Below are positions 128-18,894 of a stretch of 58,796 nt of DNA, one piece after another; the stretch's first letter is position 1; the number at the start of each line of letters is the position of its first letter. The stretch comes from an uncultured Alphaproteobacteria bacterium (GTDB lineage: Bacteria > Pseudomonadota > Alphaproteobacteria > RF32 > CAG-239), in assembly GCA_945835885.1 (NCBI GenBank), contig CAMAJR010000002.1, positions 1 through 58,796 on the forward strand. Direction: 5' to 3'. The notes under the pieces are model-generated. The model was not told the origin of the DNA. It did no database searches and was given only the letters and a program-made list of their open reading frames with translations. A program made the position numbers and the translations under genes.

Positions 128-931
128 ATGATTGGATTGGCTTATCCGGAAATATCGCCGATAATTTTTTCAATCGGACCGATAGCAATACGTTGGTATT
201 CGCTGGCCTACTTGGTCGGTATATTGTTTGCGTGGTGGCAGGCGACGACGCGCGTCAAAAAATACGATTTGGGATTGACACGAACCAATTGCGAAGATGC
301 CGTTTTTGCGGCAACAATCGGTATTCTTGCCGGTGGCAGAATCGGTTATATTTTGTTTTATGGCGTGTCGCAATATTGGCAAAATCCTTGGGAAATGGTG
401 GCAATTTGGCACGGCGGAATGTCGTTTCACGGCGGCATTTTCGGGGTAATTATCGCTCTGTGGATTTATACGCACAAAATTAAATATCCTTTTTTGAAAC
501 TGACCGATTTGGCGGCGCCGTTGGTGCCGGTCGGAATATTTTTGGGCCGAATCGCGAATTTTATTAACGACGAACTGTGGGGACGCGTGACTGATGTTTC
601 TTGGGCGGTGCGCTTTCCGCGCGGCGGATATTTGCCGCGTCATCCGTCACAGCTTTATGAAGCATTTTTTGAAGGAATATGCTTATTTATTATACTGAAT
701 CTGATGTGGCGTCACAAATGGTGTCGTGAACGCACGGGGCTGATTTCAGGCACGTTTTTGCTCGGATACGCCGTGTTTCGGATGGTTGTGGAGCGGTTTC
801 GCGAGCCGGATGCGCAGCTTGGTTTTTTACAGTTTGGTATGACAATGGGGCAGTGGCTTTCGTTGCCGATAACACTACTCGGCGTTTGGCTGGTTGTTCG
901 TTCGTTTTTATCGCATAAATCGGAAGATTAA
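128..931 (+). CDS. lgt: Prolipoprotein diacylglyceryl transferase
   Basis: 267-aa polytopic membrane ORF with Lgt hallmarks (IRWYSLAYLVG, HGGMSFHGG, GRIANFINDELWG, HPSQLYE). GAGGAAG SD just upstream of the ATG. Confidence 0.93.
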   Translation: MIGLAYPEISPIIFSIGPIAIRWYSLAYLVGILFAWWQATTRVKKYDLGLTRTNCEDAVFAATIGILAGGRIGYILFYGVSQYWQNPWEMVAIWHGGMSFHGGIFGVIIALWIYTHKIKYPFLKLTDLAAPLVPVGIFLGRIANFINDELWGRVTDVSWAVRFPRGGYLPRHPSQLYEAFFEGICLFIILNLMWRHKWCRERTGLISGTFLLGYAVFRMVVERFREPDAQLGFLQFGMTMGQWLSLPITLLGVWLVVRSFLSHKSED

Positions 932-3491: not shown

Positions 3492-6122
3492 ATGGCAAAT
3501 AAAAGCAAAACTGCAGGTATTCGCAGTGTTGAAGACGCAGAAAAAATTATTCAGTCGTATGCCTATGGGAAAGATTTGGATACAGCAATTCTTTATTTAA
3601 AGAAAAATGATCCGGAAAACAGCGTGTTGGCAACCATTAAGGATTTTGAAAACGATCGTCCGATGCTGAAGGTGTTAAACGCGATGTATCGTGCCGATGA
3701 AGCACGCAAAAATAATGATACGGCCGAGTTGCAAAAAATTGCCGAATTTTTGAACAGCTATAAGGCATATAAAAACAAAGACGATATGAGGGCGATTTTA
3801 AAAGATTTTCCTGAAATCAGTTCGGAAGAAAAAACCGCTATCGAAGAAATCGCTGTTGAAACGGAAAAGACCAATCGCATTCACGAAAAACAAGAAATCG
3901 TTCGTGAAAAAACCCCGAGTATGAGTGATGATGAAATCGTTGCCAACAGTGAACAAATCCAAGAGATGTTGAAAAAATGGTCTGCAGCCATTACCGAAAA
4001 AGATAATGTTACGGTGGTAGACAGCAACGGTGAGGTATTGGATGCCGAAAAGTCAAAAGAAATCAGAGGTCTTCATCGCCAATGGGTTGAATTGGATATT
4101 ATCAGCAAGCATTCCGATAATGCTGCCTTTGTTGCGATGAGTGACAAAGATAAAGAAGAAACTCTGAAAAGAGATATTTATGACCGTTTCTGGAGCGATG
4201 TTGAAGCAATGGCGGCGACGACTGCCGATTTAAACGGTGCCGATGATGCGGAAATTGAAAAAGTTCGTGCCAAAGCGCAACGTCATGAGCCGGTTGTTAT
4301 CAGAGCAGACGTTTATGATGCCAACAGAGAAGAATTAAAAGAAGACATTGCCAATAAAGTTAATGAATTCGGTAAGCAAAAGAAAGAAAAATCTAAGAGC
4401 TGGTTCGCACGTAAGTTAGAAAAACTGAACAATCTTTCGCGCAAAATTACGGGTTATACACCGGCTGAATTCGGTAAGATGGTGTTCAGCGTATTCTCAA
4501 AAAGACGTTTTGCTGCCAATGTTGCGGCGAGCGTGGGTGCTTTGGGCTTGTCCGGTTATGGAGCTACCAGTGCGGCAGCAACCATTGCCGCCGGTGCCGG
4601 CGTGATGGCTGCGGCACCGGCAATCGCTGTTGCGGCTACGGGTATTGCGGCCTATGGCCTTTACAGTGCTTATTCGCAACAAAGATGGAGTATTTGGGAA
4701 AAGAAACACGCCTATTGGAAAGCCGCCAAAGAAAAAGGCGATACACAAGAAATGGCCAAATGGTCGGGTATGACCGGTTGGAATAATGCTTTGAAGGCAA
4801 TTAAGGCCAATCCGGAAGAAAACAAAGTTTATGAACAAATCAAGAAAAATAATAAACGTTACGGCTTACTTGCCGGTGCATTGATGGGGGTCGGCACGGC
4901 ATTCGTTCCGGGTGGAAACGTTGTCGGACGTTTGTTAGGTGCCGGTGCTCGCGGTGTCGGTGCTAATGTGAATGCAAAGTTTATGTATGATTTGGCAAAA
5001 CAAAAATATGCCGAAAATCAGACTGAGCAAAATGAAATCAATATGAAGCGCGCGCGCACAGGGTTGGTTTTGGGTATTGTCGGCACAACTCTTATGGAAG
5101 CTGCCGTTGCCTACAGCGCTTCTCATCCGATTGGGGTTGAACACAATCCGGAAAATGTTGCGTCTAACGGTGCAGAACACAGTCATGCCGCAGAAGCTGC
5201 TGTCAGAGATGAAAATGCCGCTGAAGCGACTCCGGGGGTAGATGCTGAAGCTACTGTTGCAAGGGTTGAGGTTCCGAATCACTACAGCTCTGATTTAGGC
5301 GGTACGGAAAAGCAGTGGACAATTATTCATAAATACGGTGATGACATTTATGAAGAGCATTATCTTCATACATACAATGCGCAACAGGCACATCCGGATG
5401 CTTTTGTGAACTCTGACGGTTCGCATATGACAACTATGGAAGCGCAATACAAGAGTCAGGTTATTTTAGAGGGATTGGCTAAGGAAGGTAAAGACCACCA
5501 CTTCCGCCTGTTTGATGAAAATCACGTTGAAGTGTTTAAGACCAAAGACGGCGATGGTTTTGTTTATGCCAACGGCACTAAAGTTACATCAACGAATATT
5601 GCGCCTGAGTGCTGGGGCAGTGAAGAAAGAGTTGAAACTTTCCGCGCTCTTTACAAGGCCATCGATTGCGGTGAAAGAGTTGACGGTTTAAATGCTGCTC
5701 AAATTAATGCAATGTATAAAGATGTTTTGAGCGGACACGGAAATGCTTATGCCGTGACCAACGAATGCGGCGATATTGAATGGTATCACACATTGACTCG
5801 CAGGGTTGCGCATAAAGTACCTGCTCCTGTGAGTGAACAGACGACAATCAACGAAGTGCCGCCGGCAGATGCCGATATTCAAAATGATGTTCAAATTCTT
5901 GATAAACCAGTAGAAGATGCTAAGGTTGACGGCAGTGTTGAAATTGTGGAAAAACCGGCTCAAGATCATCAGGTTGATGACGGTGCGGTTGTTGGAACAA
6001 AATCGCAACTCGGCAAAGGCACAACATCCAAAACCCACCTTGCTGACGGTCATCACGTTGACGGCGGGACTAGAATAGTTCCGGGGTCGATGGTTAATAT
6101 CGGTCGTGAAGTCGGCAGATAA
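3492..6122 (+). CDS. Large orphan protein (876 aa) with central Gly/Ala-rich hydrophobic segments
   Basis: Long ORF with an AAGGAG SD and candidate promoter elements upstream (TTGACA 3405-3410; TTGCAA-17 nt-TATAGT 3418-3446). No signal peptide. Charged helical N-terminal third, hydrophobic stretch AANVAASVGALGLSGYGATSAAATIAAGAGVMAAAPAIAVAATGIAAYGLYSAY plus two more Gly-rich hydrophobic segments, and a soluble C-terminal half. I recognise no family. Confidence 0.7.
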   Translation: MANKSKTAGIRSVEDAEKIIQSYAYGKDLDTAILYLKKNDPENSVLATIKDFENDRPMLKVLNAMYRADEARKNNDTAELQKIAEFLNSYKAYKNKDDMRAILKDFPEISSEEKTAIEEIAVETEKTNRIHEKQEIVREKTPSMSDDEIVANSEQIQEMLKKWSAAITEKDNVTVVDSNGEVLDAEKSKEIRGLHRQWVELDIISKHSDNAAFVAMSDKDKEETLKRDIYDRFWSDVEAMAATTADLNGADDAEIEKVRAKAQRHEPVVIRADVYDANREELKEDIANKVNEFGKQKKEKSKSWFARKLEKLNNLSRKITGYTPAEFGKMVFSVFSKRRFAANVAASVGALGLSGYGATSAAATIAAGAGVMAAAPAIAVAATGIAAYGLYSAYSQQRWSIWEKKHAYWKAAKEKGDTQEMAKWSGMTGWNNALKAIKANPEENKVYEQIKKNNKRYGLLAGALMGVGTAFVPGGNVVGRLLGAGARGVGANVNAKFMYDLAKQKYAENQTEQNEINMKRARTGLVLGIVGTTLMEAAVAYSASHPIGVEHNPENVASNGAEHSHAAEAAVRDENAAEATPGVDAEATVARVEVPNHYSSDLGGTEKQWTIIHKYGDDIYEEHYLHTYNAQQAHPDAFVNSDGSHMTTMEAQYKSQVILEGLAKEGKDHHFRLFDENHVEVFKTKDGDGFVYANGTKVTSTNIAPECWGSEERVETFRALYKAIDCGERVDGLNAAQINAMYKDVLSGHGNAYAVTNECGDIEWYHTLTRRVAHKVPAPVSEQTTINEVPPADADIQNDVQILDKPVEDAKVDGSVEIVEKPAQDHQVDDGAVVGTKSQLGKGTTSKTHLADGHHVDGGTRIVPGSMVNIGREVGR

Positions 6123-9440: not shown

Positions 9441-10832
9441 TTATTTTCCCTCTAAAATCGCTTTGAATAGCTCATGCACACTCGGAATATGGTTGTGTGC
9501 ATAAAGCGGGTCGGTGGCAAAGCGATATACATTATGACCGGCAAATGCCAAGTTATTTTGAATATCACCGCCGTGACCGATATTCATCAACGTTTGATGA
9601 ATGCAGTAGGTGCGCGGGTCCGGAATTTTGCCGGTTGTGCCGTTTTCGCGCGACCAACTCGAAAATTGGCATTGTGAAAGGCAACCGACGCATTCGGAGC
9701 GTTGTTTTTGCATTTCAATCCATTCGTCCGGCGTTAGAAATACAAGCGTTGAATCCGGCGTTTCTTTAATCATAGAATAGCCGAGCGTGCGTTGTTCTTC
9801 AACCTTTTGTTTGTCGCTCGGATTGATATAAACCGCTTTGTGCGGTGCAATCGGCAATAAAAACGTCAGTTCGTCGGTTGCAGTGTCGCTGTATGATATC
9901 TCCGCTTTTTTACGGCGCATAAGGTTGCTCAAAAATTTGTTTTTAATTGCTGATGAAAAGAAACCCGTCGGGCTGAATTTTTGCAAAATCACATCACCTT
10001 TTTGTGCGTGCATCATCAAAATTTTCCACGCCTCACTAATCGGGCTTTCTTTGGTAATCATCGGACGTGTGCCAAATTGAAACGCAACATTGCCGAGTTC
10101 CGGATTGTCAATATAATCTTGCCAGTCGCTCAAACTCCATACACCGCCGGCAATAATAATCGGCAAATTTTTCAAACCGAGTTCATTCAGAACTTGGCGA
10201 AGCGCAACCAAACGTTCATAAGGGCGTTCCGGCGCAAGAGGATTTTCGGCGTTTGAAAGACCGTTGTGTCCGCCGGCAAGCCACGGGTCTTCATAAACGA
10301 CACCGCCTAAATATTCGGCATAATTTTTGAAAGCGCGTTTCCATAAAACAGTCATAGCGCGAGCCGATGAAATAATCGGGTAATAATAAACATTGTGCTC
10401 AGAAGCGATTTTGCCCAAATTATACGGCAGTCCCGCTCCGCAAGTAACACCGTGAATCAGGCCTTTTGCTCCGTCTAAAACGCGGGTGATGACTTCTTGC
10501 GAATCAGCCATTTCCCAGAGCATATTGATATGGATACGGCCGTTGTTACCGGCAATATCGTGTGCGATTTGCGCTTGGCTGATGCCGCCTTTAATGGCAT
10601 ATTCAACCATTTCGCGATGGCGTTTGGCGCGGATTTTTTCGTGGAAAATTTCCGGTATAATTGTTCCTTCAAGCGAAATTTCGGTCGGACTGACCATCGA
10701 GATTGTGCCGACGCCGCCTTCTTTGGCCCAAGAACCCGAACTTTTTCCGTCCGTTCCGTTAATACCTTTACCGCCTTCAATCAGCGGATAAACCATTGCG
10801 CCCGAGATATTGATTTTGTTTAAATTTTTCAT
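9441..10832 (-). CDS. FMN-dependent TIM-barrel oxidoreductase, nitronate monooxygenase (NMO/2-nitropropane dioxygenase) family, long form
   Basis: 463 aa counted from the ATG preceded by a GAGGTG SD (the table ORF starts 10 codons earlier). NMO-like layout (YPLIEGG.G, GVTCGAGLP, IIAGGVW..., FQFGTRP) plus a Cys-containing C-terminal extension (CVGCLSQC). Confidence 0.55.
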   Translation of the reverse strand: MKNLNKINISGAMVYPLIEGGKGINGTDGKSSGSWAKEGGVGTISMVSPTEISLEGTIIPEIFHEKIRAKRHREMVEYAIKGGISQAQIAHDIAGNNGRIHINMLWEMADSQEVITRVLDGAKGLIHGVTCGAGLPYNLGKIASEHNVYYYPIISSARAMTVLWKRAFKNYAEYLGGVVYEDPWLAGGHNGLSNAENPLAPERPYERLVALRQVLNELGLKNLPIIIAGGVWSLSDWQDYIDNPELGNVAFQFGTRPMITKESPISEAWKILMMHAQKGDVILQKFSPTGFFSSAIKNKFLSNLMRRKKAEISYSDTATDELTFLLPIAPHKAVYINPSDKQKVEEQRTLGYSMIKETPDSTLVFLTPDEWIEMQKQRSECVGCLSQCQFSSWSRENGTTGKIPDPRTYCIHQTLMNIGHGGDIQNNLAFAGHNVYRFATDPLYAHNHIPSVHELFKAILEGK

Positions 10833-10976
10833 AATCTTACACCTCACTTGTTTTTTGCCCAAATCTCCCCGTTTTCCGAATTAAACCGGAATGATATTAA
10901 AAATATAATACGCTTTTTTTTGTTTGAAAAGTAGGCACTTTCTGGAATTATAGTTTCCTAAGAGAAACAAATGCGA

Positions 10977-12437
10977 TTATTCGCTGAGTTTGAACCATTC
11001 AAACGGCACGCCGTTGACGACTAAAAAGGCAATGATAAAACTGATGTAGGCATAAATTTGCAACATACTCGTTAGACTGCGGTGCATTATATCCGAAACC
11101 ATGGGCGAAACCGTGTTCAAAAATTTGTTGATGCCTAAAATACCAAGAAAAATCAAAGTAAGTTGCGCAAACATTCCGGCATTCAGCAGTGTGTCCTTAA
11201 AAGAAGAAGCAATTTTGTAGAGAAAAGTGAAAAAAAGCAAAAGCGCAATCATTAAAACGTTCAAACCGTGATATTTAAATTTATCGATTTGTTCCCGTTC
11301 CAGTTTTTTGCGACGCAAATTTTCGGTGGCCAATTTTTTTACTTCCATTCCGCGCACGGTTTCCGGTTCTTGTTGCTGCTTTTTATAATTGTCCATACGA
11401 ATTTTGAACTTTTCAGCCACCATACACAAACCGCAACCCTTTGGGGTGAAATAAACATGGTTTTTATCTTTTTTGCAACGTTTGTAATGATTAAGCAAAT
11501 AATCCAAATGGGCTTGCCATTCAAGTGCGGACGGGCGCTTTTTGTCTTTGGTAAAGGCACGTTCAAAGAGATTCATCGTTTCTTTATCAAAATAATCGTG
11601 CAAACTGTAAGGATGCGGACGTTGATACGAATCCGGCCATAAACTGTAAGCATAGTGATAACCGGCTATCCGCTCCTGCAACGAAAGCATTGTGTCATTT
11701 GGTTTGCACGGTGTGCCCGAAAACGGATGAATACCGTCATTTAAAAGTTTAAAAATAATAACCGCCAAGGCGAATTTATCCTGTTCTTCTCCCATTTCTT
11801 CGCAAGTTTGGTTCATACCTTCCGGATAAATATATTCTTCGCTGACAAATTCTGCCGGATAACGCGCACCGTTTTCGCCTTTAATTGAAAAGCCGTCGCA
11901 ATCAAATACGACAACAAGCTGATTCTGCTTATAAATTGAAACGTTTGACGGTTTTAAGTCAACAATATAGTGACCGCAAGCGTGCAATGCCGCGACGACC
12001 GATGTAATGTTATAAGCGGCAAAAACACGGTCGAGATAGCGTTCACTCAAACCGAGTTTTTGTCGGGTTGCTTTTTGAATGAGATAATCAAGAGAAATTG
12101 CCTCGTTTGTATCGATTTGCGGCATCAGGTAGCCGATACAAAAGCCCTGCGTGTCTTCAAGCAAAGCGGTAGGCCACGCAATTTGATAATATTCGCGTCC
12201 GTTGTCATTTATGGTCGGAATGTTCGGTCGGTTATGCAACATGGCTTCAAGTTTTTGCCGATTGGTGCCGCTTCGTTCTTTTTCGTGAAAAATTTTGGCA
12301 ACGCTGTTCGGATGTGTCATATCGCGATAGATTTTGCCGGCGGCTCCGCCTTTGTTGAGCATTTCACCCAACATAACACGTTCGTTATGCCCGTCCGGAT
12401 ATAAAGCCAAGCACAATGTTCCGGCATTTTTCATCAT
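10977..12437 (-). CDS. Hanks-type Ser/Thr protein kinase, membrane anchored (yegI-like, TerY-P triad kinase)
   Basis: G-loop-like GGAAGKIY, VAKIF lysine, catalytic loop IVDLKPSNV, VFDCDGF in place of DFG, and IIFKLLNDGIHPFSG. Downstream are RCKK..(13)..CGLC, a coiled-coil and about 3 C-terminal TM helices. The start ATG overlaps the PP2C stop (TAATG) and follows a GGAGG SD. Confidence 0.8.
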   Translation of the reverse strand: MMKNAGTLCLALYPDGHNERVMLGEMLNKGGAAGKIYRDMTHPNSVAKIFHEKERSGTNRQKLEAMLHNRPNIPTINDNGREYYQIAWPTALLEDTQGFCIGYLMPQIDTNEAISLDYLIQKATRQKLGLSERYLDRVFAAYNITSVVAALHACGHYIVDLKPSNVSIYKQNQLVVVFDCDGFSIKGENGARYPAEFVSEEYIYPEGMNQTCEEMGEEQDKFALAVIIFKLLNDGIHPFSGTPCKPNDTMLSLQERIAGYHYAYSLWPDSYQRPHPYSLHDYFDKETMNLFERAFTKDKKRPSALEWQAHLDYLLNHYKRCKKDKNHVYFTPKGCGLCMVAEKFKIRMDNYKKQQQEPETVRGMEVKKLATENLRRKKLEREQIDKFKYHGLNVLMIALLLFFTFLYKIASSFKDTLLNAGMFAQLTLIFLGILGINKFLNTVSPMVSDIMHRSLTSMLQIYAYISFIIAFLVVNGVPFEWFKLSE

Positions 12438-13186
12438 TAAACCTCCGCCCATAAAATTGTTTTGTCATCTGCGTTAATACGTTGCGCGCGGGCGTCGTCC
12501 AAGGTGTTTTTCAAGGCACGCACGGCATAAGTTTTGCGTTGTTCTTTTTCTAAATATTCAACAATCGGCACGAAAAATTTGCGCTGAATTTTATAAAAAT
12601 CGTTTAAGAAAACGAATCCGGTTACGCCGTCGGTCATCAGCATCAAACGGTTAATATCGGCAAACGGTTTGAAGCGCAGGCAATCGCGCCAATCGGACAT
12701 AGTGTAAAAATATGTTTCGCACGAAAAAGTGCCGTTCTCCGGCTCCGAAATAAACAAATTGTCATAGTTGCCCGCGTTAAAAGCAATTCCCGCTCCGTCG
12801 CCGATGTGAAAAAATATTCCTTTGTCGTTGTGGTAAAAAAAACCGATAACCGTGGCTGAAAAATTGATTAAATCGCTTTCAGATTTGCTTTTATTGAAGC
12901 GGTGGAAAATTAATTTTTGACGTGCGATTTCTATGGCTTTGACAACATCACGCCGAATCGTTTTGTGATTTGAGCGCACCAATAAATCACACAATGTTTT
13001 GCACACGATTTTAGCGCCGATTTGACCGTATGGCGCAGAGCCGGCTCCGTCTGAAACAACGCCGACAAGTTTGTTTTTCAGAGTTTTTGAACACGCATAA
13101 TCCTGACAAGGCATTTTGTTGGCTTTATGCAAAGCACCGCGAAGGCAGGCAGACAGAGTTCTTATGTGTGTTTGTTTGTTCGGCAT
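12437..13186 (-). CDS. PP2C-family protein phosphatase (yegK/pphC-like)
   Basis: 249 aa counted from the ATG 4 nt after the vWA stop. Motifs QDY...VGVVSDGAGS, FFHIGDGAG and LMLMTDGV are typical of bacterial PP2C_2-type phosphatases. Confidence 0.75.
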   Translation of the reverse strand: MPNKQTHIRTLSACLRGALHKANKMPCQDYACSKTLKNKLVGVVSDGAGSAPYGQIGAKIVCKTLCDLLVRSNHKTIRRDVVKAIEIARQKLIFHRFNKSKSESDLINFSATVIGFFYHNDKGIFFHIGDGAGIAFNAGNYDNLFISEPENGTFSCETYFYTMSDWRDCLRFKPFADINRLMLMTDGVTGFVFLNDFYKIQRKFFVPIVEYLEKEQRKTYAVRALKNTLDDARAQRINADDKTILWAEV

Positions 13187-13190
13187 ATTT

Positions 13191-13871
13191 TTACTTTTCG
13201 TTCCACTCGGTGATGTCATCGAGATATTTGTTGGCATTCGGGGCAGCTTTAGAAATGCATGAAACACTGCGGCTGAGCCACAGGAAAAATTCGGTGAATT
13301 TTAAGCCGGTCAATCGTTTGGGCGGCAAAATCGAAAATTTGGCGAGCTTTTCCAAGTTGGCACCTTGTGTGCCGATGGCGTGGATGACGACCTTTTTATT
13401 TTTTTGCGCATAGCGGCAGAGTTCTGCCGAATCTTCCCAACCGTAGTCGGTCGGCTCGCCGTCGCTGATGAGAAAAATCCACGGACGTTTAGATGTTACG
13501 CCGCAACTGTCGTATAGGCATTTTTGCTCTTCGATTTTTTGTAACGCTGTTTCCATTGCTTTACCGAGCGGGGTTAAACCACTGGCTTCCATTGTCGGAG
13601 CCGTAAAGTTCATGGCATCTGTCCAGTTCGATTCGATTTTAATTTCGTCTTTACCGAACGCTTTAACAATCAGCAGTTGCACACGGGCACTGGCATCAAT
13701 ATCTTCTTTGAGTTCTTTTTCAAGTGCCGCCAAGCCGGCGTTGAGTTGTTTTATCGGTTCACCGCGCATTGAGCCGGAGCAATCTAACACCAAAACGCAC
13801 GGTGTGCGTTCGTTGGCATTGTCGGCAAATTCGACATACGGGATTCGTTCTATTACATTTTTATCGGACAT
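13191..13871 (-). CDS. von Willebrand factor A domain protein, TerY / YegL-like
   Basis: 226 aa. Intact MIDAS motif in PCVLVLDCSGSMRGEPI, GLTPLGKA, and WIFLISDGEPTD. The size and layout match the TerY family. GGAG SD. Confidence 0.85.
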   Translation of the reverse strand: MSDKNVIERIPYVEFADNANERTPCVLVLDCSGSMRGEPIKQLNAGLAALEKELKEDIDASARVQLLIVKAFGKDEIKIESNWTDAMNFTAPTMEASGLTPLGKAMETALQKIEEQKCLYDSCGVTSKRPWIFLISDGEPTDYGWEDSAELCRYAQKNKKVVIHAIGTQGANLEKLAKFSILPPKRLTGLKFTEFFLWLSRSVSCISKAAPNANKYLDDITEWNEK

Positions 13872-13880
13872 CGTTTTCTC

Positions 13881-14018
13881 CTAACGTCGCGGATAGTTGT
13901 GCGGATAGCCGCTGCCTTCTACCGGACTTGGTTGCGAAAAGCGTCCGCAAGCCGAAAGAGCGGTTGAAATACCGACCAATAAACAACACCATAAAATTAT
14001 TTTACATACTGATTTCAT
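13881..14018 (-). CDS. Small lipoprotein (45 aa), not in the ORF track
   Basis: My own translation gives MKSVCKIILWCCLLVGISTALSA|CGRFSQPSPVEGSGYPHNYPRR*, with a canonical n-region, h-region and L-S-A-C lipobox. The stop lies 9 nt upstream of the vWA start on the same strand. Confidence 0.55.
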   Translation of the reverse strand: MKSVCKIILWCCLLVGISTALSACGRFSQPSPVEGSGYPHNYPRR

Positions 14019-14112
14019 TTGTTAACCTTTATTTTGTAATCTTGAAATTATATATTAGTATATCGGGTAAAAGTTAAAGATAGCTTATTTTTTTAACAGA
14101 AAGTTGATAACT

Positions 14113-14682
14113 ATGAAAAAAATTTTGCATTTTCTCATCGCTTTGTTTTTGTGCACGTCCGCAATATGTCGCTCGGTTGAGGCAAAGATAAATATTTTTG
14201 AAAAACCGCGTTATATTCCGGCCCTCAGCGTTTATGACGATGCGAATAATGCGTATCAGCTCAAAGATTTTCATTCCGATTTGGTGATTGCGCTATTGTG
14301 GTCAAAAACTTGCGGACCGTGCCTGAGTGATTTGCGGCGGCTCGGTGCATTTGTCACACAAACGAGAGAAGAAGGCATTGAAGTCATTTTAATCTCGCCG
14401 GAAAAAGAATGGCGCACCGTTGCCGATAAAAGGGCGTTTTTACGCCGTTTAAATGCAGCGAATATGGTCAGCTTGAATGATAAAAACAGCCGATTTAAAG
14501 ACGGTATGGGTGTTGGGGTGACGCCGACCGCGATTTTGGTTAATCGCAGCGGCGAAGAAGTCGGACACATAACCGGTTCGGTCGAATGGGATAATCCGAA
14601 AGTGATTAAATATATGAAAAACTTGCGCAAAAAGATTTTAAAACAACTTGATGAGCGCGAAACCGCCGATAAGCAACACTAA
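14113..14682 (+). CDS. Periplasmic thiol:disulfide oxidoreductase, TlpA/ResA/DsbE family
   Basis: Signal peptide MKKILHFLIALFLCTSAICRSVEA and thioredoxin-fold CxxC motif WSKTCGPCLSDL. Confidence 0.8.
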   Translation: MKKILHFLIALFLCTSAICRSVEAKINIFEKPRYIPALSVYDDANNAYQLKDFHSDLVIALLWSKTCGPCLSDLRRLGAFVTQTREEGIEVILISPEKEWRTVADKRAFLRRLNAANMVSLNDKNSRFKDGMGVGVTPTAILVNRSGEEVGHITGSVEWDNPKVIKYMKNLRKKILKQLDERETADKQH

Positions 14683-15271: not shown

Positions 15272-15901
15272 TTATGCTAAAAATTTTTCGATTTCAGCAT
15301 AGTTATTATGCCTATCCACATAAAAAATACGCTGATGATTCAATGTGTGGCGCGCGCTTACAAATTCCGGAGAATACTCAATAAGCACGGTATCAGGCTG
15401 ATTTTTTTGTAAATACAGAGCGGCCGAATCCGGATTATGCACTTCAAAATAATCATACCGACTGTTGTTTAAGCTCTCGTGCAAGGCATCGCCGTGCGGT
15501 GAATACGAATCAAGAAGCATAATACGGTGCGTCTTGTTGCCGTGCGTAAGGCTTTCGAGTATATCCGTCAATATCGAAAAGTCTGCCGGCATATTGAGCC
15601 AACGTGTGATTTTCGGGTGTGCGCTGAAATTTTCGGTCGGCGGGTTTAAGGCAATTACCGGAAAATTGACATCTGCCGCTTTATTGAAAAAACTGTCCAA
15701 CATTTCTGCCGGCCGGCGTTCATTTTGTAAATTGATAACCGTAATGTTCGGTTTGATTGCCTGTGCATAGAGTAGCAGCTGATATATATTGTCTGTTCCG
15801 AAAGTTTTGAACGCACGACTGTCGTAGATATCGGCAAATGCCGGAAGAAAACCGCGCCGATTATCGTAGAAAAAAACATTTCCGTTATGAGATGTTTGCA
15901 T
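15272..15901 (-). CDS. Hypothetical protein (209 aa), possibly a degenerate receiver-like (flavodoxin-fold) protein
   Basis: AAGGAAG SD. The C-terminal half (HRIMLLDSYSP...YFEVHNPDSAALYLQKNQPDTVLIEYSPEF) follows the beta-alpha pattern of CheY-like receivers but lacks the acidic pocket. Confidence 0.5.
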   Translation of the reverse strand: MQTSHNGNVFFYDNRRGFLPAFADIYDSRAFKTFGTDNIYQLLLYAQAIKPNITVINLQNERRPAEMLDSFFNKAADVNFPVIALNPPTENFSAHPKITRWLNMPADFSILTDILESLTHGNKTHRIMLLDSYSPHGDALHESLNNSRYDYFEVHNPDSAALYLQKNQPDTVLIEYSPEFVSARHTLNHQRIFYVDRHNNYAEIEKFLA

Positions 15902-15950: not shown

Positions 15951-16799
15951 TTAAAGGGCTGAATGCTGAATTAAAAAGGCGTCATAAGTATTTTGCAACA
16001 ACATCGCAATAGTCATCGGACCGACTCCGCCGGGCACCGGTGTTATGGCGGCGGCTTTATCAACAACATCATCAAAATCTATATCGCCGCAAATTTTGCC
16101 GTTGTCGCGGTTTATACCGACATCTATCAAAATCGAATCCGGCTTTATCCAATCGGCTTTAACTAATTTGGCAACACCGCATGCGGCAACCAAAATATCG
16201 GCCTTTTGCGTCAGTTCTTTAATGTTGCGGGTGTGAATATGTGTAATGCTGACAGTGCATTCTTGATTGAGCAACAAAGTAGCAAGCGGTCGGCCGACAA
16301 TCAGAGAAGCACCGATTAAAACAACGTTTTTGCCGCTTAAATTTGGACAATGTTGTTGTATCAGTTTCATAATTCCGAGCGGTGTGGCGGCAATAAAATA
16401 CGGTTTTTCGTTGTTGTGCAACATTCCCGTATTGTATGGGTGGAATCCGTCGACGTCTTTGGTCGGTAAAATTCGGTTGATGATTTTATGTGTATTTAAA
16501 TGTGCCGGCAACGGTAATTGCACGATAATTCCATTGACATCAGTGTTGCGGTTACAGTCATCAATAATTTCCCAAACGGTTTGTTCGGCAGTATTTTCCG
16601 GCAAATGGTAGAGTTCTGTTTCAATACCGATTTCGGCTGCGGCTTTTTGCTTGTTTCTGACATAAATCAAGCTGGAATCATCATTGCCGACCAAGATAAT
16701 CGCCAATTTCGGCGCAGAATTTAATGTGGCGATTTTGTTTTTAAGCTCGGTGCGAACCTGCGCTGCCGTTTCTTTTCCGTTGATTATTTGCGCCGTCAT
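15951..16799 (-). CDS. folD: Bifunctional methylenetetrahydrofolate dehydrogenase/cyclohydrolase
   Basis: 282 aa with ILVGNDDSSLIYVRNK, VQLPLP, DVDGFHP, GRP and PVPGGVGPMT motifs. Confidence 0.96.
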   Translation of the reverse strand: MTAQIINGKETAAQVRTELKNKIATLNSAPKLAIILVGNDDSSLIYVRNKQKAAAEIGIETELYHLPENTAEQTVWEIIDDCNRNTDVNGIIVQLPLPAHLNTHKIINRILPTKDVDGFHPYNTGMLHNNEKPYFIAATPLGIMKLIQQHCPNLSGKNVVLIGASLIVGRPLATLLLNQECTVSITHIHTRNIKELTQKADILVAACGVAKLVKADWIKPDSILIDVGINRDNGKICGDIDFDDVVDKAAAITPVPGGVGPMTIAMLLQNTYDAFLIQHSAL

Positions 16800-18326: not shown

Positions 18327-18761
18327 TTATCTTTCTTCAAAAATGACTTTTGCCTGTTCAAGCCAAATAATATGGTCGATGACCCAATTACTGATTTGTT
18401 CGATTTTTTCCATTTCGACACCGAGTGCAATACCGATTTTTCCGATAAACAAGGTTTCTTCATCTGAAAGAATGTTGTCAATGTGCGAAAGCATACACAT
18501 TTCACGAATCAGTTCTAACGCCAAATGACGGTTTTTGATGATTTTGACATCTTGTAAAATTTTTTCTTCACTAAGAGTTTTGAGTTCCTCTAAATTTTCA
18601 ATGCCTTGTGACTTGGCAGCATCAATGAGAAAACCGAGTTCATTGTCGTCGGTAATCCCGTCAGAATCGGCAAGATGAAACAGAACTCTGAAGAATACCG
18701 TTTTTTCTTTCAATGTTGCCGAATCTAAATATGACGGCAGAATATTGTTGGTTGCGGACAT
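18327..18761 (-). CDS. TerB-like (tellurite-resistance TerB / DjlA N-domain fold) protein
   Basis: 144 aa counted from the ATG behind an AAGGAG SD. Two copies of the TerB-like pattern (FFRVLFHLADSDGITDDNELGFL and ELIREMCMLSHIDNILSDEETLFI). Confidence 0.6.
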   Translation of the reverse strand: MSATNNILPSYLDSATLKEKTVFFRVLFHLADSDGITDDNELGFLIDAAKSQGIENLEELKTLSEEKILQDVKIIKNRHLALELIREMCMLSHIDNILSDEETLFIGKIGIALGVEMEKIEQISNWVIDHIIWLEQAKVIFEER

Positions 18762-18894
18762 ATTTTCTCCTTGTTTTACAAACGTATGCACATAATATAT
18801 ACATTCCACGCATTTTGCAACAGAAAAAAATGTTGAAAAAAAATACTAAGTAGCGTATGGATTATATATTGTTAATTTTTGAAACGGAAGAAAA

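Follow-up and report, generated by a model that had tools for sequence, protein, structure and literature searches.

A YegL-PphC-YegI-type triad preceded by a small lipoprotein gene in a conserved operon of uncultured Alphaproteobacteria

The TerY-P triad, which comprises a von Willebrand factor A (vWA) protein together with a phosphatase and a kinase, goes back to a 2012 definition by Anantharaman, Iyer, and Aravind, as relayed in part by later papers (PMC11090510; PMC4978471), and has been reported to be active against T7-like phages (PMC7699616). The TerY-P defense modules that have been tested carry an oligonucleotide/oligosaccharide-binding (OB) fold at the C terminus of the kinase, and triads linked to CoCoNuT restriction systems carry a zinc ribbon instead (PMC11090510). 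In the module that regulates the archaellum of Sulfolobus acidocaldarius, the zinc finger of ArnA docks on ArnB, a vWA protein bearing a MIDAS (metal-ion-dependent adhesion site) (PMC12852372; PMC6509490), and the C-terminal region of ArnB acts as a switch that is phosphorylated by the Hanks-type kinase ArnC and reset by the Ser/Thr phosphatase PP2A (PMC12852372). Escherichia coli has the yegL-pphC(yegK)-yegI triad, which occurs in the same gene order, with ATGA overlaps, in E. coli B and in pathogenic strains, and whose kinase, YegI, was found experimentally to be a two-pass inner-membrane protein (bioRxiv 10.1101/819920). Biochemical work on the E. coli proteins has shown that the kinase autophosphorylates and that the PP2C-type phosphatase dephosphorylates it. 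The PpkA/PppA pathway of the Pseudomonas aeruginosa type VI secretion system (T6SS) combines a membrane Hanks-type kinase, to which a periplasmic vWA domain is fused, with a PP2C-type phosphatase and with the lipoprotein TagQ, which, together with TagR, feeds signal to the kinase. Here, we analyze a four-gene operon at positions 10977 to 14018 on the minus strand of a 58,796-nucleotide stretch of DNA (contig CAMAJR010000002.1 of assembly GCA_945835885.1, from an uncultured alphaproteobacterium), which we refer to in its full length as the window.

We interpret this locus, with moderate confidence, as a vertically inherited operon in which a Ser/Thr phospho-signaling module of the YegL-PphC-YegI type is accompanied by a clade-specific mini-lipoprotein, and whose role is core and physiological, in envelope or stress signaling, and not that of a mobile anti-phage system. 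The evidence comes from the homology and layout of the genes, from their conservation across species, and from the architecture of the kinase and the lipoprotein.

Gene order, homology, and constraint

Four consecutive minus-strand open reading frames (ORFs) fill the block and encode a lipoprotein of 45 amino acids (aa; 13881 to 14018), a vWA protein of 226 aa (13191 to 13871), a PphC/YegK-like PP2C phosphatase of 249 aa (12437 to 13186), and a kinase of 486 aa (10977 to 12437). An earlier account of this DNA, made from its letters and ORFs and here called the sequence-only reading, had described four codirectional genes separated by 9, 4, and -1 nt, the last being a TAATG overlap, and all of its coordinates and junctions proved correct. 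A GGAG lies inside the 9-nt junction between the lipoprotein and vWA genes, and a GGAGG stands ahead of the kinase ATG. The phosphatase was assigned to ATG 13186, which gives 249 aa and matches homologs of 245 to 251 aa; a start at GTG 13267, as called mechanically, would run about 80 nt into the vWA gene and misfit the lengths of homologs. The kinase ATG at 12437 overlaps the phosphatase stop codon by one base, and homologs of the kinase are 480 to 493 aa long.

Each of the three large proteins has a homolog in the E. coli triad (YegL, PphC, and YegI), as the sequence-only reading had proposed, and the gene order is the same. All three exceed the curated Pfam cutoffs (VWA, E value of 1e-7, together with VWA_2; PP2C_2, 1.1e-35; Pkinase, 1e-10), and the catalytic residues of the kinase and phosphatase are invariant, as are those of the MIDAS. 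The description of a vWA protein with an intact MIDAS, a PP2C phosphatase, and a Hanks-type kinase also holds. In BLASTP comparisons with the E. coli K-12 proteins (read from NC_000913.3), the vWA protein is 42% identical to YegL over its full length (residues 14 to 224; E value of 6e-51), the phosphatase is 26% identical to PphC from end to end (residues 9 to 248 on 4 to 253; E value of 1e-12), and the kinase is 30% identical to YegI over the kinase domain and just past its end (residues 18 to 329 on YegI residues 12 to 317; E value of 2e-29). Past YegI residue 317, the BLASTP alignments are insignificant (E values of 9.6 and 91).

Scanning one genome per GTDB species with an alignment of the vWA protein recovered 80 loci, 78 of which belong to a clade of gut and rumen Alphaproteobacteria with vWA identities of 74 to 97% (among their titles are "Proteobacteria bacterium CAG:495" and "uncultured Azospirillaceae," besides many RUG, RGIG, and MGBC metagenome-assembled genomes [MAGs]). 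The remaining two are marine Rhodospirillaceae-like MAGs with vWA identities of 56 to 57%. Both the kinase and the vWA protein have their nearest relatives in "Alphaproteobacteria bacterium" MAGs of uncultured origin that were sampled from gut, rumen, and bioreactor. Across 80 loci, each from one species-representative genome, the median gaps are 15 nt between the lipoprotein and vWA genes, -11 nt between the vWA and PP2C genes, and -1 nt between the PP2C and kinase genes. The first of these gaps ranges from -11 to 68 nt. A four-gene arrangement of this regularity is far beyond chance, and the packing that had been read as a single tight operon is conserved in all of these species-level loci. 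When the neighboring genes were searched by tblastn against all loci, a block comprising a divergent thioredoxin-fold (redoxin) gene, the lipoprotein gene, and the vWA, PP2C, and kinase genes recurred almost everywhere, and an NMO-family gene followed the kinase in 62 of the 78 clade loci.

Within these 78 clade loci, the median identity to the window is 82% for the vWA protein, 71% for FolD, 71% for DedA, 64% for NMO, 56% for the kinase, 51% for PP2C, 50% for the lipoprotein, and 34% for the redoxin. The vWA gene is the most constrained in the neighborhood, above folD (15951 to 16799) and the NMO gene (9441 to 10862). A fixed position in at least 78 species, combined with a vWA protein more conserved than FolD and NMO, argues for a physiological and not a defensive role in this branch. 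So high a degree of conservation is unusual in a functionally uncharacterized protein whose family is often considered accessory.

The vWA protein has the properties of the TerY/YegL type, being stand-alone and about 220 aa long with a complete MIDAS, and its homologs are named "uncharacterized protein YegL" in source databases. The MIDAS motif D30-x-S32-x-S34 (DCSGSM) is encoded at 13770 to 13784 (minus strand) and is completed by T100 and D137; all five residues are invariant, including in E. coli YegL. The protein lacks a signal peptide. Its C-terminal tail, WLSRSVSxxS...W, recurs as F-x-E-x-F-x-W-L-S-x-S...S...W in YegL and in relatives that are as little as 37% identical. An AlphaFold2 (AF2) model (pLDDT of 78) shows a Rossmann-like vWA fold, with the tail at residues 204 to 226 disordered, and a Foldseek search with this model returned integrin I-domains, the anthrax-receptor vWA domain, Rpn10, TFIIH p44, and archaeal ArnB (8s05), the last being the one lead that Foldseek gave among otherwise generic kinase and vWA folds.

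The phosphatase matches Pfam model PF13672, and its motifs DGAGS, HIGDGAG, DG, and DDKT, which hold the metal-binding Asp residues, are invariant in the clade; with its catalytic motifs intact, it is probably active. A sequence search of the PDB detected no solved structure for either the vWA protein or the phosphatase.

Architecture of the kinase

The kinase begins with a Hanks-type catalytic domain (aa 1 to 315; 11493 to 12437, minus strand), as supported by Pfam Pkinase, the YegI alignment, and the AF2 model. It contains a P-loop (GGAAG), K48, a catalytic loop (HYIVDLKPSN), a DCDGF that replaces DFG, and a YPE motif. In a 37-sequence alignment, the P-loop glycines, K48, H156, D160, K162, N165, D179, and D181 are invariant, as are P205, E206, D220, R293, and the C321/H327/C335/C338 set that follows the domain. 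Given these invariant catalytic residues and a catalytic loop nearer the Hanks consensus than that of YegI, the kinase is very likely active. Foldseek matches to the model are PknB, PknA, and eukaryotic kinases, and a PDB sequence search returned remote eukaryotic kinases only.

Directly after the catalytic domain lies a zinc-ribbon-like motif, C321-x5-H327-x7-C335-x2-C338 (aa 316 to 340; 11418 to 11492, minus strand), which is invariant in the clade and absent from the account of the kinase given in the sequence-only reading. It is followed by a charged helical linker (aa 341 to 387; 11277 to 11417) with 14 K/R and 9 D/E residues, and then by a C-terminal membrane anchor of three hydrophobic helices that runs to the stop codon (aa 388 to 486; 10977 to 11276). 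The AF2 model (mean pLDDT of 82) shows a bilobal kinase, short beta strands at the Cys/His motif (pLDDT of 80 to 87), and long helices at 336 to 356 and from 366 onward, those running through the hydrophobic tail being placed at 366 to 404, 422 to 446, and 450 to 474. By hydropathy, the three tail segments occur in the window kinase and in 56 of 78 clade homologs. The tail has very short loops and about 9 residues after its last helix, with no ectodomain, and the kinase is predicted to be an integral inner-membrane protein. Median identity within the clade falls from 65% in the catalytic domain and 60% in the zinc ribbon to 36% in the linker and 28% in the transmembrane (TM) tail.

To place this architecture in its family, we searched 1.84 billion representatives of clusters (at 50% identity) exhaustively with HMMER, which returned 607 representatives at E≤1e-30. 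Nearly all of the best 150 of these 607 align only over residues ~15 to 342 of the query, which correspond to the kinase domain and zinc ribbon, within proteins of 355 to 1145 aa; the exceptions are a representative from within the clade, three short fragments, and three or four that reach ~20 to 60 residues into the linker. The in-clade representative is the only one of the best 150 that aligns over the tail of the window kinase. Among the best 150, all 144 representatives of at least 400 aa contain the C...H...CxxC motif, and in 127 of the 144 (~88%) a crude hydropathy scan picked up one or more TM-like segments beyond the zinc ribbon, with exactly one in 108. A median of 243 residues lies beyond the last TM-like segment. 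The ectodomain-less form seen in the window is in the minority, with 30 or fewer residues after the last segment in 10 of the 127. By these sequence features, the family is made up mostly of receptor-type membrane kinases with variable C-terminal modules, and relatives are named "helix-hairpin-helix protein with protein kinase domain" in source databases.

This survey bears on the proposal, made in the sequence-only reading, that the operon carries two envelope-directed additions to a known triad, namely, the lipoprotein and the TM helices of the kinase. The lipoprotein is specific to the clade. Membrane anchoring is not an undescribed addition, since YegI is itself a two-pass membrane protein (10.1101/819920) and most family members have a hydrophobic segment after the ribbon; what is particular to the clade is the three-helix form that has no sensor domain.

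The small lipoprotein and its surroundings

The lipoprotein precursor reads MKSVCKIILWCCLLVGISTALSA|CGRFSQPSPVEGSGYPHNYPRR and comprises a basic N terminus, a hydrophobic stretch, a lipobox (LSA|C), and a short mature part. The stretch MKSVCKIILWCCLLVGISTALSA|C satisfies the pattern [LVI][ASTG][GAS]C of Lgt/LspA substrates, and cleavage before the Cys would leave a mature lipopeptide, CGRFSQPSPVEGSGYPHNYPRR, of about 21 to 22 aa (13884 to 13949, minus strand). An alignment of 55 orthologs gives the consensus CG[KR]xSxPxPxEGSGYPHxYP[RK]x for the mature part, in which C24 (the lipobox Cys, present in 55/55), G25, S36, H40, Y42, and P43 are invariant and P30, P32, G37, Y38, and P39 nearly so. The invariant residues use all synonymous codons (both AGY and TCN for Ser36, and four codons each for Pro43 and Gly25), from which it follows that selection acts on the peptide and not on the DNA. 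The 45-aa lipoprotein that had been called from the ORF is, on these grounds, real and conserved.

A profile search retrieved 341 relatives; the 120 listed are mostly 41 to 51 aa (one is 70 aa) and have no Pfam domain, and the few with names are called "hypothetical protein" and come from Alphaproteobacteria or Pseudomonadota MAGs. The family passes no curated threshold and is named nowhere beyond "hypothetical protein." In 80 of the 83 loci analyzed, the lipoprotein gene immediately precedes the vWA gene, and a metagenome scan for [GD]SGYPHxYP found a vWA gene within 150 nt in 73 of the 75 loci with enough downstream sequence, the other two also holding one; at none of these 75 loci does the motif stand apart from a vWA gene. 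No second small lipoprotein is encoded in the window. The window does contain lgt, for prolipoprotein diacylglyceryl transferase, at 128 to 931 (plus strand), which fits a host that processes lipoproteins such as the 45-aa product. At the marine loci L085 (5338 to 5925) and L086 (5369 to 5956), a conserved 195-aa protein with hydrophobic ends replaces the lipoprotein directly upstream of the vWA gene.

The intergenic region between the lipoprotein gene and its divergent neighbor (14019 to 14103) is a putative promoter and 5' untranslated region of the operon, in which blocks are conserved among 13 related loci. The alignment shows a conserved ATATAAT about 25 to 30 nt 5' of the lipoprotein ATG and a conserved ribosome-binding region, AAAGGTTAAnAAATG, around which the rest of the upstream sequence varies. 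This arrangement fits the lipoprotein gene as the first cistron. The block AAAGGTTAAnAAATG is 15 nt long and is kept among loci (the window and 12 relatives) whose coding sequences have diverged to about 50 to 60%; because this exceeds the needs of a plain Shine-Dalgarno sequence, it may be a regulatory element. Inside the block of four genes, terminator- and promoter-like consensus matches occur only at the level expected from shuffled sequence, and the top promoter-like match spans the lipoprotein start codon, just past which the sequence varies among aligned relatives.

The divergent neighbor (14104 to 14682, plus strand) encodes a secreted TlpA/AhpC-type thioredoxin-fold protein with CGPC as its CxxC motif (Pfam AhpC-TSA and Redoxin). 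We treat it as context; it shares the promoter region with the operon and may hint at an envelope or redox theme. The other genes of the window are of a housekeeping kind, among them lgt, queA, rpsD, folD, a DedA-family gene, and one for a MiaB/RimO-like radical-SAM enzyme, and no tRNA, integrase, transposase, or defense gene was seen near the operon among the window neighbors scanned, in keeping with the housekeeping surroundings free of mobile markers that had been described at the outset.

Several features of these surroundings merit mention in their own right. The NMO-family protein (PF03060; 9441 to 10862, minus strand) is unusually long, with 473 aa from the listed TTG start; ATG 10832 (MKNLNK...) is the more probable start, and the Pfam match is confined to residues 118 to 328. 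The gap between this gene and the kinase is 114 nt (about 144 nt from ATG 10832), with no terminator-like site detected in it. An 876-aa ORF at 3492 to 6122 (plus strand) has no Pfam match at E≤0.05. A 209-aa ORF (15272 to 15901, minus strand) between the DedA-family gene and folD has no Pfam match; it evolves very fast (median identity of 33% in the clade) and yet is syntenic in closer relatives.

Proposed function, rival explanations, and known systems

In the mechanism that we propose, the kinase would be anchored in the inner membrane by its three poorly conserved C-terminal helices, with the catalytic domain and zinc ribbon in the cytoplasm, a topology suggested by hydropathy, by the AF2 model, and by the proven topology of E. 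coli YegI. To judge from the E. coli orthologs and the conserved catalytic residues, it would autophosphorylate, and the cotranslated PP2C would remove the phosphates. The cytoplasmic vWA protein, with its intact MIDAS and extreme purifying selection, would be the dedicated partner of this pair, most likely docked by the zinc ribbon of the kinase and either phosphorylated on, or read out through, its C-terminal WLSxSxSxxS tail, after which it could act as a switchable adaptor that relays the signal. More speculatively, the lipopeptide may supply an envelope-side input of the kind that most family members draw from a large extracytoplasmic domain. A stronger version of this last idea, in which the lipid-anchored peptide has replaced a YegI-type ectodomain and, for a three-helix kinase devoid of its own sensor, takes the part of envelope-side ligand or co-sensor in core, and possibly essential, envelope surveillance, strikes us as unlikely; if true, it would be the first physiological, nondefense role for a TerY-type vWA/PP2C/kinase triad.

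A number of points weigh against a core signaling operon that works in this way. Zinc-ribbon docking and Ser-tail phosphorylation of the vWA protein are modeled by analogy on ArnA/ArnB/ArnC/PP2A, and the structural match between the vWA protein and ArnB is at the generic level of the vWA fold (TM-score of about 0.55, 21 to 22% identity), the inserted beta-sandwich and helical bundle of ArnB being absent from the window protein. The TM tail of the kinase is poorly conserved and leaves about 6 and 9 residues outside the membrane, and a specific contact with the lipopeptide is not evident; the Gly at position +2 might, moreover, route the lipoprotein to the outer membrane, where the kinase could not reach it. 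Shared ancestry confounds the lipoprotein-triad link, in that the redoxin and NMO genes are syntenic as well and L081 is the sole informative exception, and the 78 clade loci found by the vWA scan are a count of presences only. We know of no substrate, trigger, or phenotype for any member of the triad family. Finally, expression of the E. coli operon was undetected under the conditions tested (10.1101/303594; PMC13232886).

Among the alternatives, it is possible, if rather doubtful, that the system consists of the three large genes alone and that the lipoprotein is an envelope protein unrelated to it, for example, a divergent LptM-like chaperone of the lipopolysaccharide translocon or a partner of the redoxin, which would share the transcript merely by inherited synteny. 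Models of LptM do match the family (NCBIfam NF047847 in 42 of 55 members, with a best E value of 1.1e-4, and Pfam LptM_cons in 12), but every hit is below its threshold, and generic lipoprotein families match similarly. The window lipoprotein scores 14 bits against NF047847 (cutoff of 27.7), over residues 7 to 26 only, and 12.3 bits against PF13627 (cutoff of 27.3); the matched stretch, which is reported for this one member, covers the signal peptide and CG[KR] and not the mature motif, where the invariant GSGYPHxYP differs from the CGxKGPLYxP of LptM. An LptM-like identity is, in consequence, unproven and unlikely. Upstream of the lipoprotein gene, the divergent redoxin gene is found at all 61 of 61 metagenome loci and in 77 of the 78 clade genomes, an adjacency as constant as that with the vWA gene, so that synteny by itself cannot separate a lipoprotein-triad link from a lipoprotein-redoxin link. 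Locus L081, the exception, does separate them: there, a PilT/T2SSE-like ATPase gene on the same strand (693 to 1667) stands in the place of the redoxin gene and ends 9 nt before the lipoprotein gene, yet the lipoprotein gene is still found 14 nt upstream of the vWA gene. The case for a bystander draws further on the weak conservation of the kinase tail, through which any contact with the lipopeptide would have to run, and on the absence of such a lipoprotein gene from the triads of E. coli, L076, L085, and L086, all of which fall outside the clade. It is countered by a spacing to the vWA gene of at most 33 nt in 78 of 80 species, with overlaps in some, and by a motif that was never met apart from a vWA gene. 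Upstream of the triad, L076 carries lysA and a gene for a 409-aa protein. In L003, as in L081, a T2SSE-family gene is present, and it lies a few kilobases upstream together with a bundlin/PilS-like gene.

We consider it improbable that the operon serves, as the sequence-only reading suggested, in anti-phage defense as a TerY-P-type system (Gao et al. 2020), in which the triad would sense infection and trigger growth arrest or some other protection and the fixed chromosomal position would reflect the domestication of a defense locus. The three-domain composition is indeed that of TerY-P (PMC7699616; PMC11090510), and distant relatives of the triad sit in variable contexts, such as L086, with an IS-type transposase gene upstream and a gene for a KAP-like P-loop NTPase downstream; L085, with a GIY-YIG-like gene downstream; and L088 and L089, on IMG/VR contigs. 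From these contexts, the wider triad family is probably mobile and may include defense functions. A PADLOC scan of all four window proteins, for which E. coli YegL, PphC, and YegI served as controls, gave, however, no system-level match: the vWA protein and PP2C match no PADLOC model even at E≤10, despite the presence of a TerY model (PDLC02224) in the library, and the control YegL reaches that model only at an E value of 0.032. The kinase matches the defense-kinase family PD-T4-6 (E value of 1e-4) and MkoA weakly, and since E. coli YegI matches in the same way, the PD-T4-6 hit reflects generic kinase-domain similarity. We therefore do not file the locus under TerY-P as PADLOC defines it. The tested TerY-P kinases are, besides, OB-fold fusions (PMC11090510), whereas the window kinase ends in TM helices. 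A fixed position in 78 species between housekeeping genes, with no adjoining defense or mobile genes and with a vWA protein conserved above FolD and NMO, is the opposite of what patchy, fast-turnover islands display. Taken together, the missing PADLOC match, the fixed position, the housekeeping flanks, and the purifying selection make a classical defense role unlikely in this clade. A phage origin was rejected, as only 4 relatives occur among 2.9 million viral contigs in IMG/VR, one of them an in-clade fragment that looks chromosomal and has the same redoxin-lipoprotein-vWA order. Least probable of all, to the point of being remote, is membership in a tellurite or metal-stress (Ter) system as in terZABCDE-terY clusters, in which the vWA protein would take the part of TerY and sense metal. 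Beyond the TerY/YegL type of the vWA protein, what speaks for it is a 160-aa ORF 4.5 kb away (18327 to 18809, minus strand) with a subthreshold TerB match (17.6 versus 24.4 bits, residues 94 to 139), for whose homolog at L004 the precomputed annotation gives TerB as "faint." Against this, none of the 17 window ORFs scanned (128 to 20229) matches Pfam TerC, TerD, or TerZ, and only the window's closest relatives have the intervening genes (FolD, p209, and DedA) next to the triad, the 160-aa ORF itself not being a tblastn query. With that subthreshold match as the sole signal, membership in a Ter operon was rejected.

Taken as a core phospho-signaling operon, the locus singles out the vWA protein as the triad component under the tightest constraint, in a group of systems that is widespread: the kinase and zinc-ribbon core alone accounts for the 607 clusters described above. 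It also offers testable handles in the form of an invariant zinc ribbon, a conserved Ser-rich vWA tail, and a tiny coencoded lipopeptide, although its value is limited by the fact that the hosts are uncultured and that the locus does not reveal the output of the pathway.

Compared with described systems, the operon shares with TerY-P the combination of a TerY-like vWA protein, a PP2C, and a Ser/Thr kinase, as well as a zinc ribbon like that of the CoCoNuT-linked triads (PMC11090510); it differs in having no PADLOC TerY match and a kinase that lacks an OB fold and is instead membrane anchored, and it is associated neither with restriction, DNA-processing, or secretion modules nor with a variable island. 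The Arn system resembles it in combining a MIDAS-bearing vWA protein with a Hanks-type kinase and a Ser/Thr phosphatase and is best regarded as a functional analog, not an ortholog, given that its zinc finger resides on a separate forkhead-associated (FHA) protein, ArnA, that its phosphatase is a PP2A and not a PP2C, and that it has no membrane anchor. Unlike in PpkA, the vWA in the window forms a cytoplasmic protein of its own, the lipoprotein encoded here is much smaller than TagQ, and no T6SS or FHA genes occur among the operon neighbors scanned.

The closest counterpart is the E. coli yegL-pphC-yegI triad (COG4245, TerY-type vWA), which encodes counterparts of all three proteins in an identical order, with junctions that overlap. 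Both kinases replace DFG with D-x-D (DCD here and DSD in YegI), both follow the kinase domain with C-x5-H-x7/8-CxxC (CKKDKNH...CGLC here and CIVSAMH...CPWC in YegI), and both are membrane anchored. They differ in length (486 versus 648 aa), in the C-terminal helix-hairpin-helix region of YegI, which is the basis of the COG name and has no counterpart here (a region that we do not treat as defining, because it varies across the kinase family), in TM helices that are predicted to be three and terminal here but are two and internal in YegI, and in a catalytic loop that is more canonical here (HYIVDLKPSN versus VGDVNQNS). The upstream lipoprotein gene and thioredoxin-fold neighbor have no equivalent at the E. 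coli triad, and the locus is fixed and highly conserved in its clade, whereas that of E. coli is interrupted by yegJ in K-12 (10.1101/819920; PMC13232886). The kind of system, a YegL-PphC-YegI type of TerY triad, is already known; what is new here is the sensor-less three-helix anchor, the strictly co-occurring family of mini-lipoproteins, and the core-gene-like behavior of the operon.

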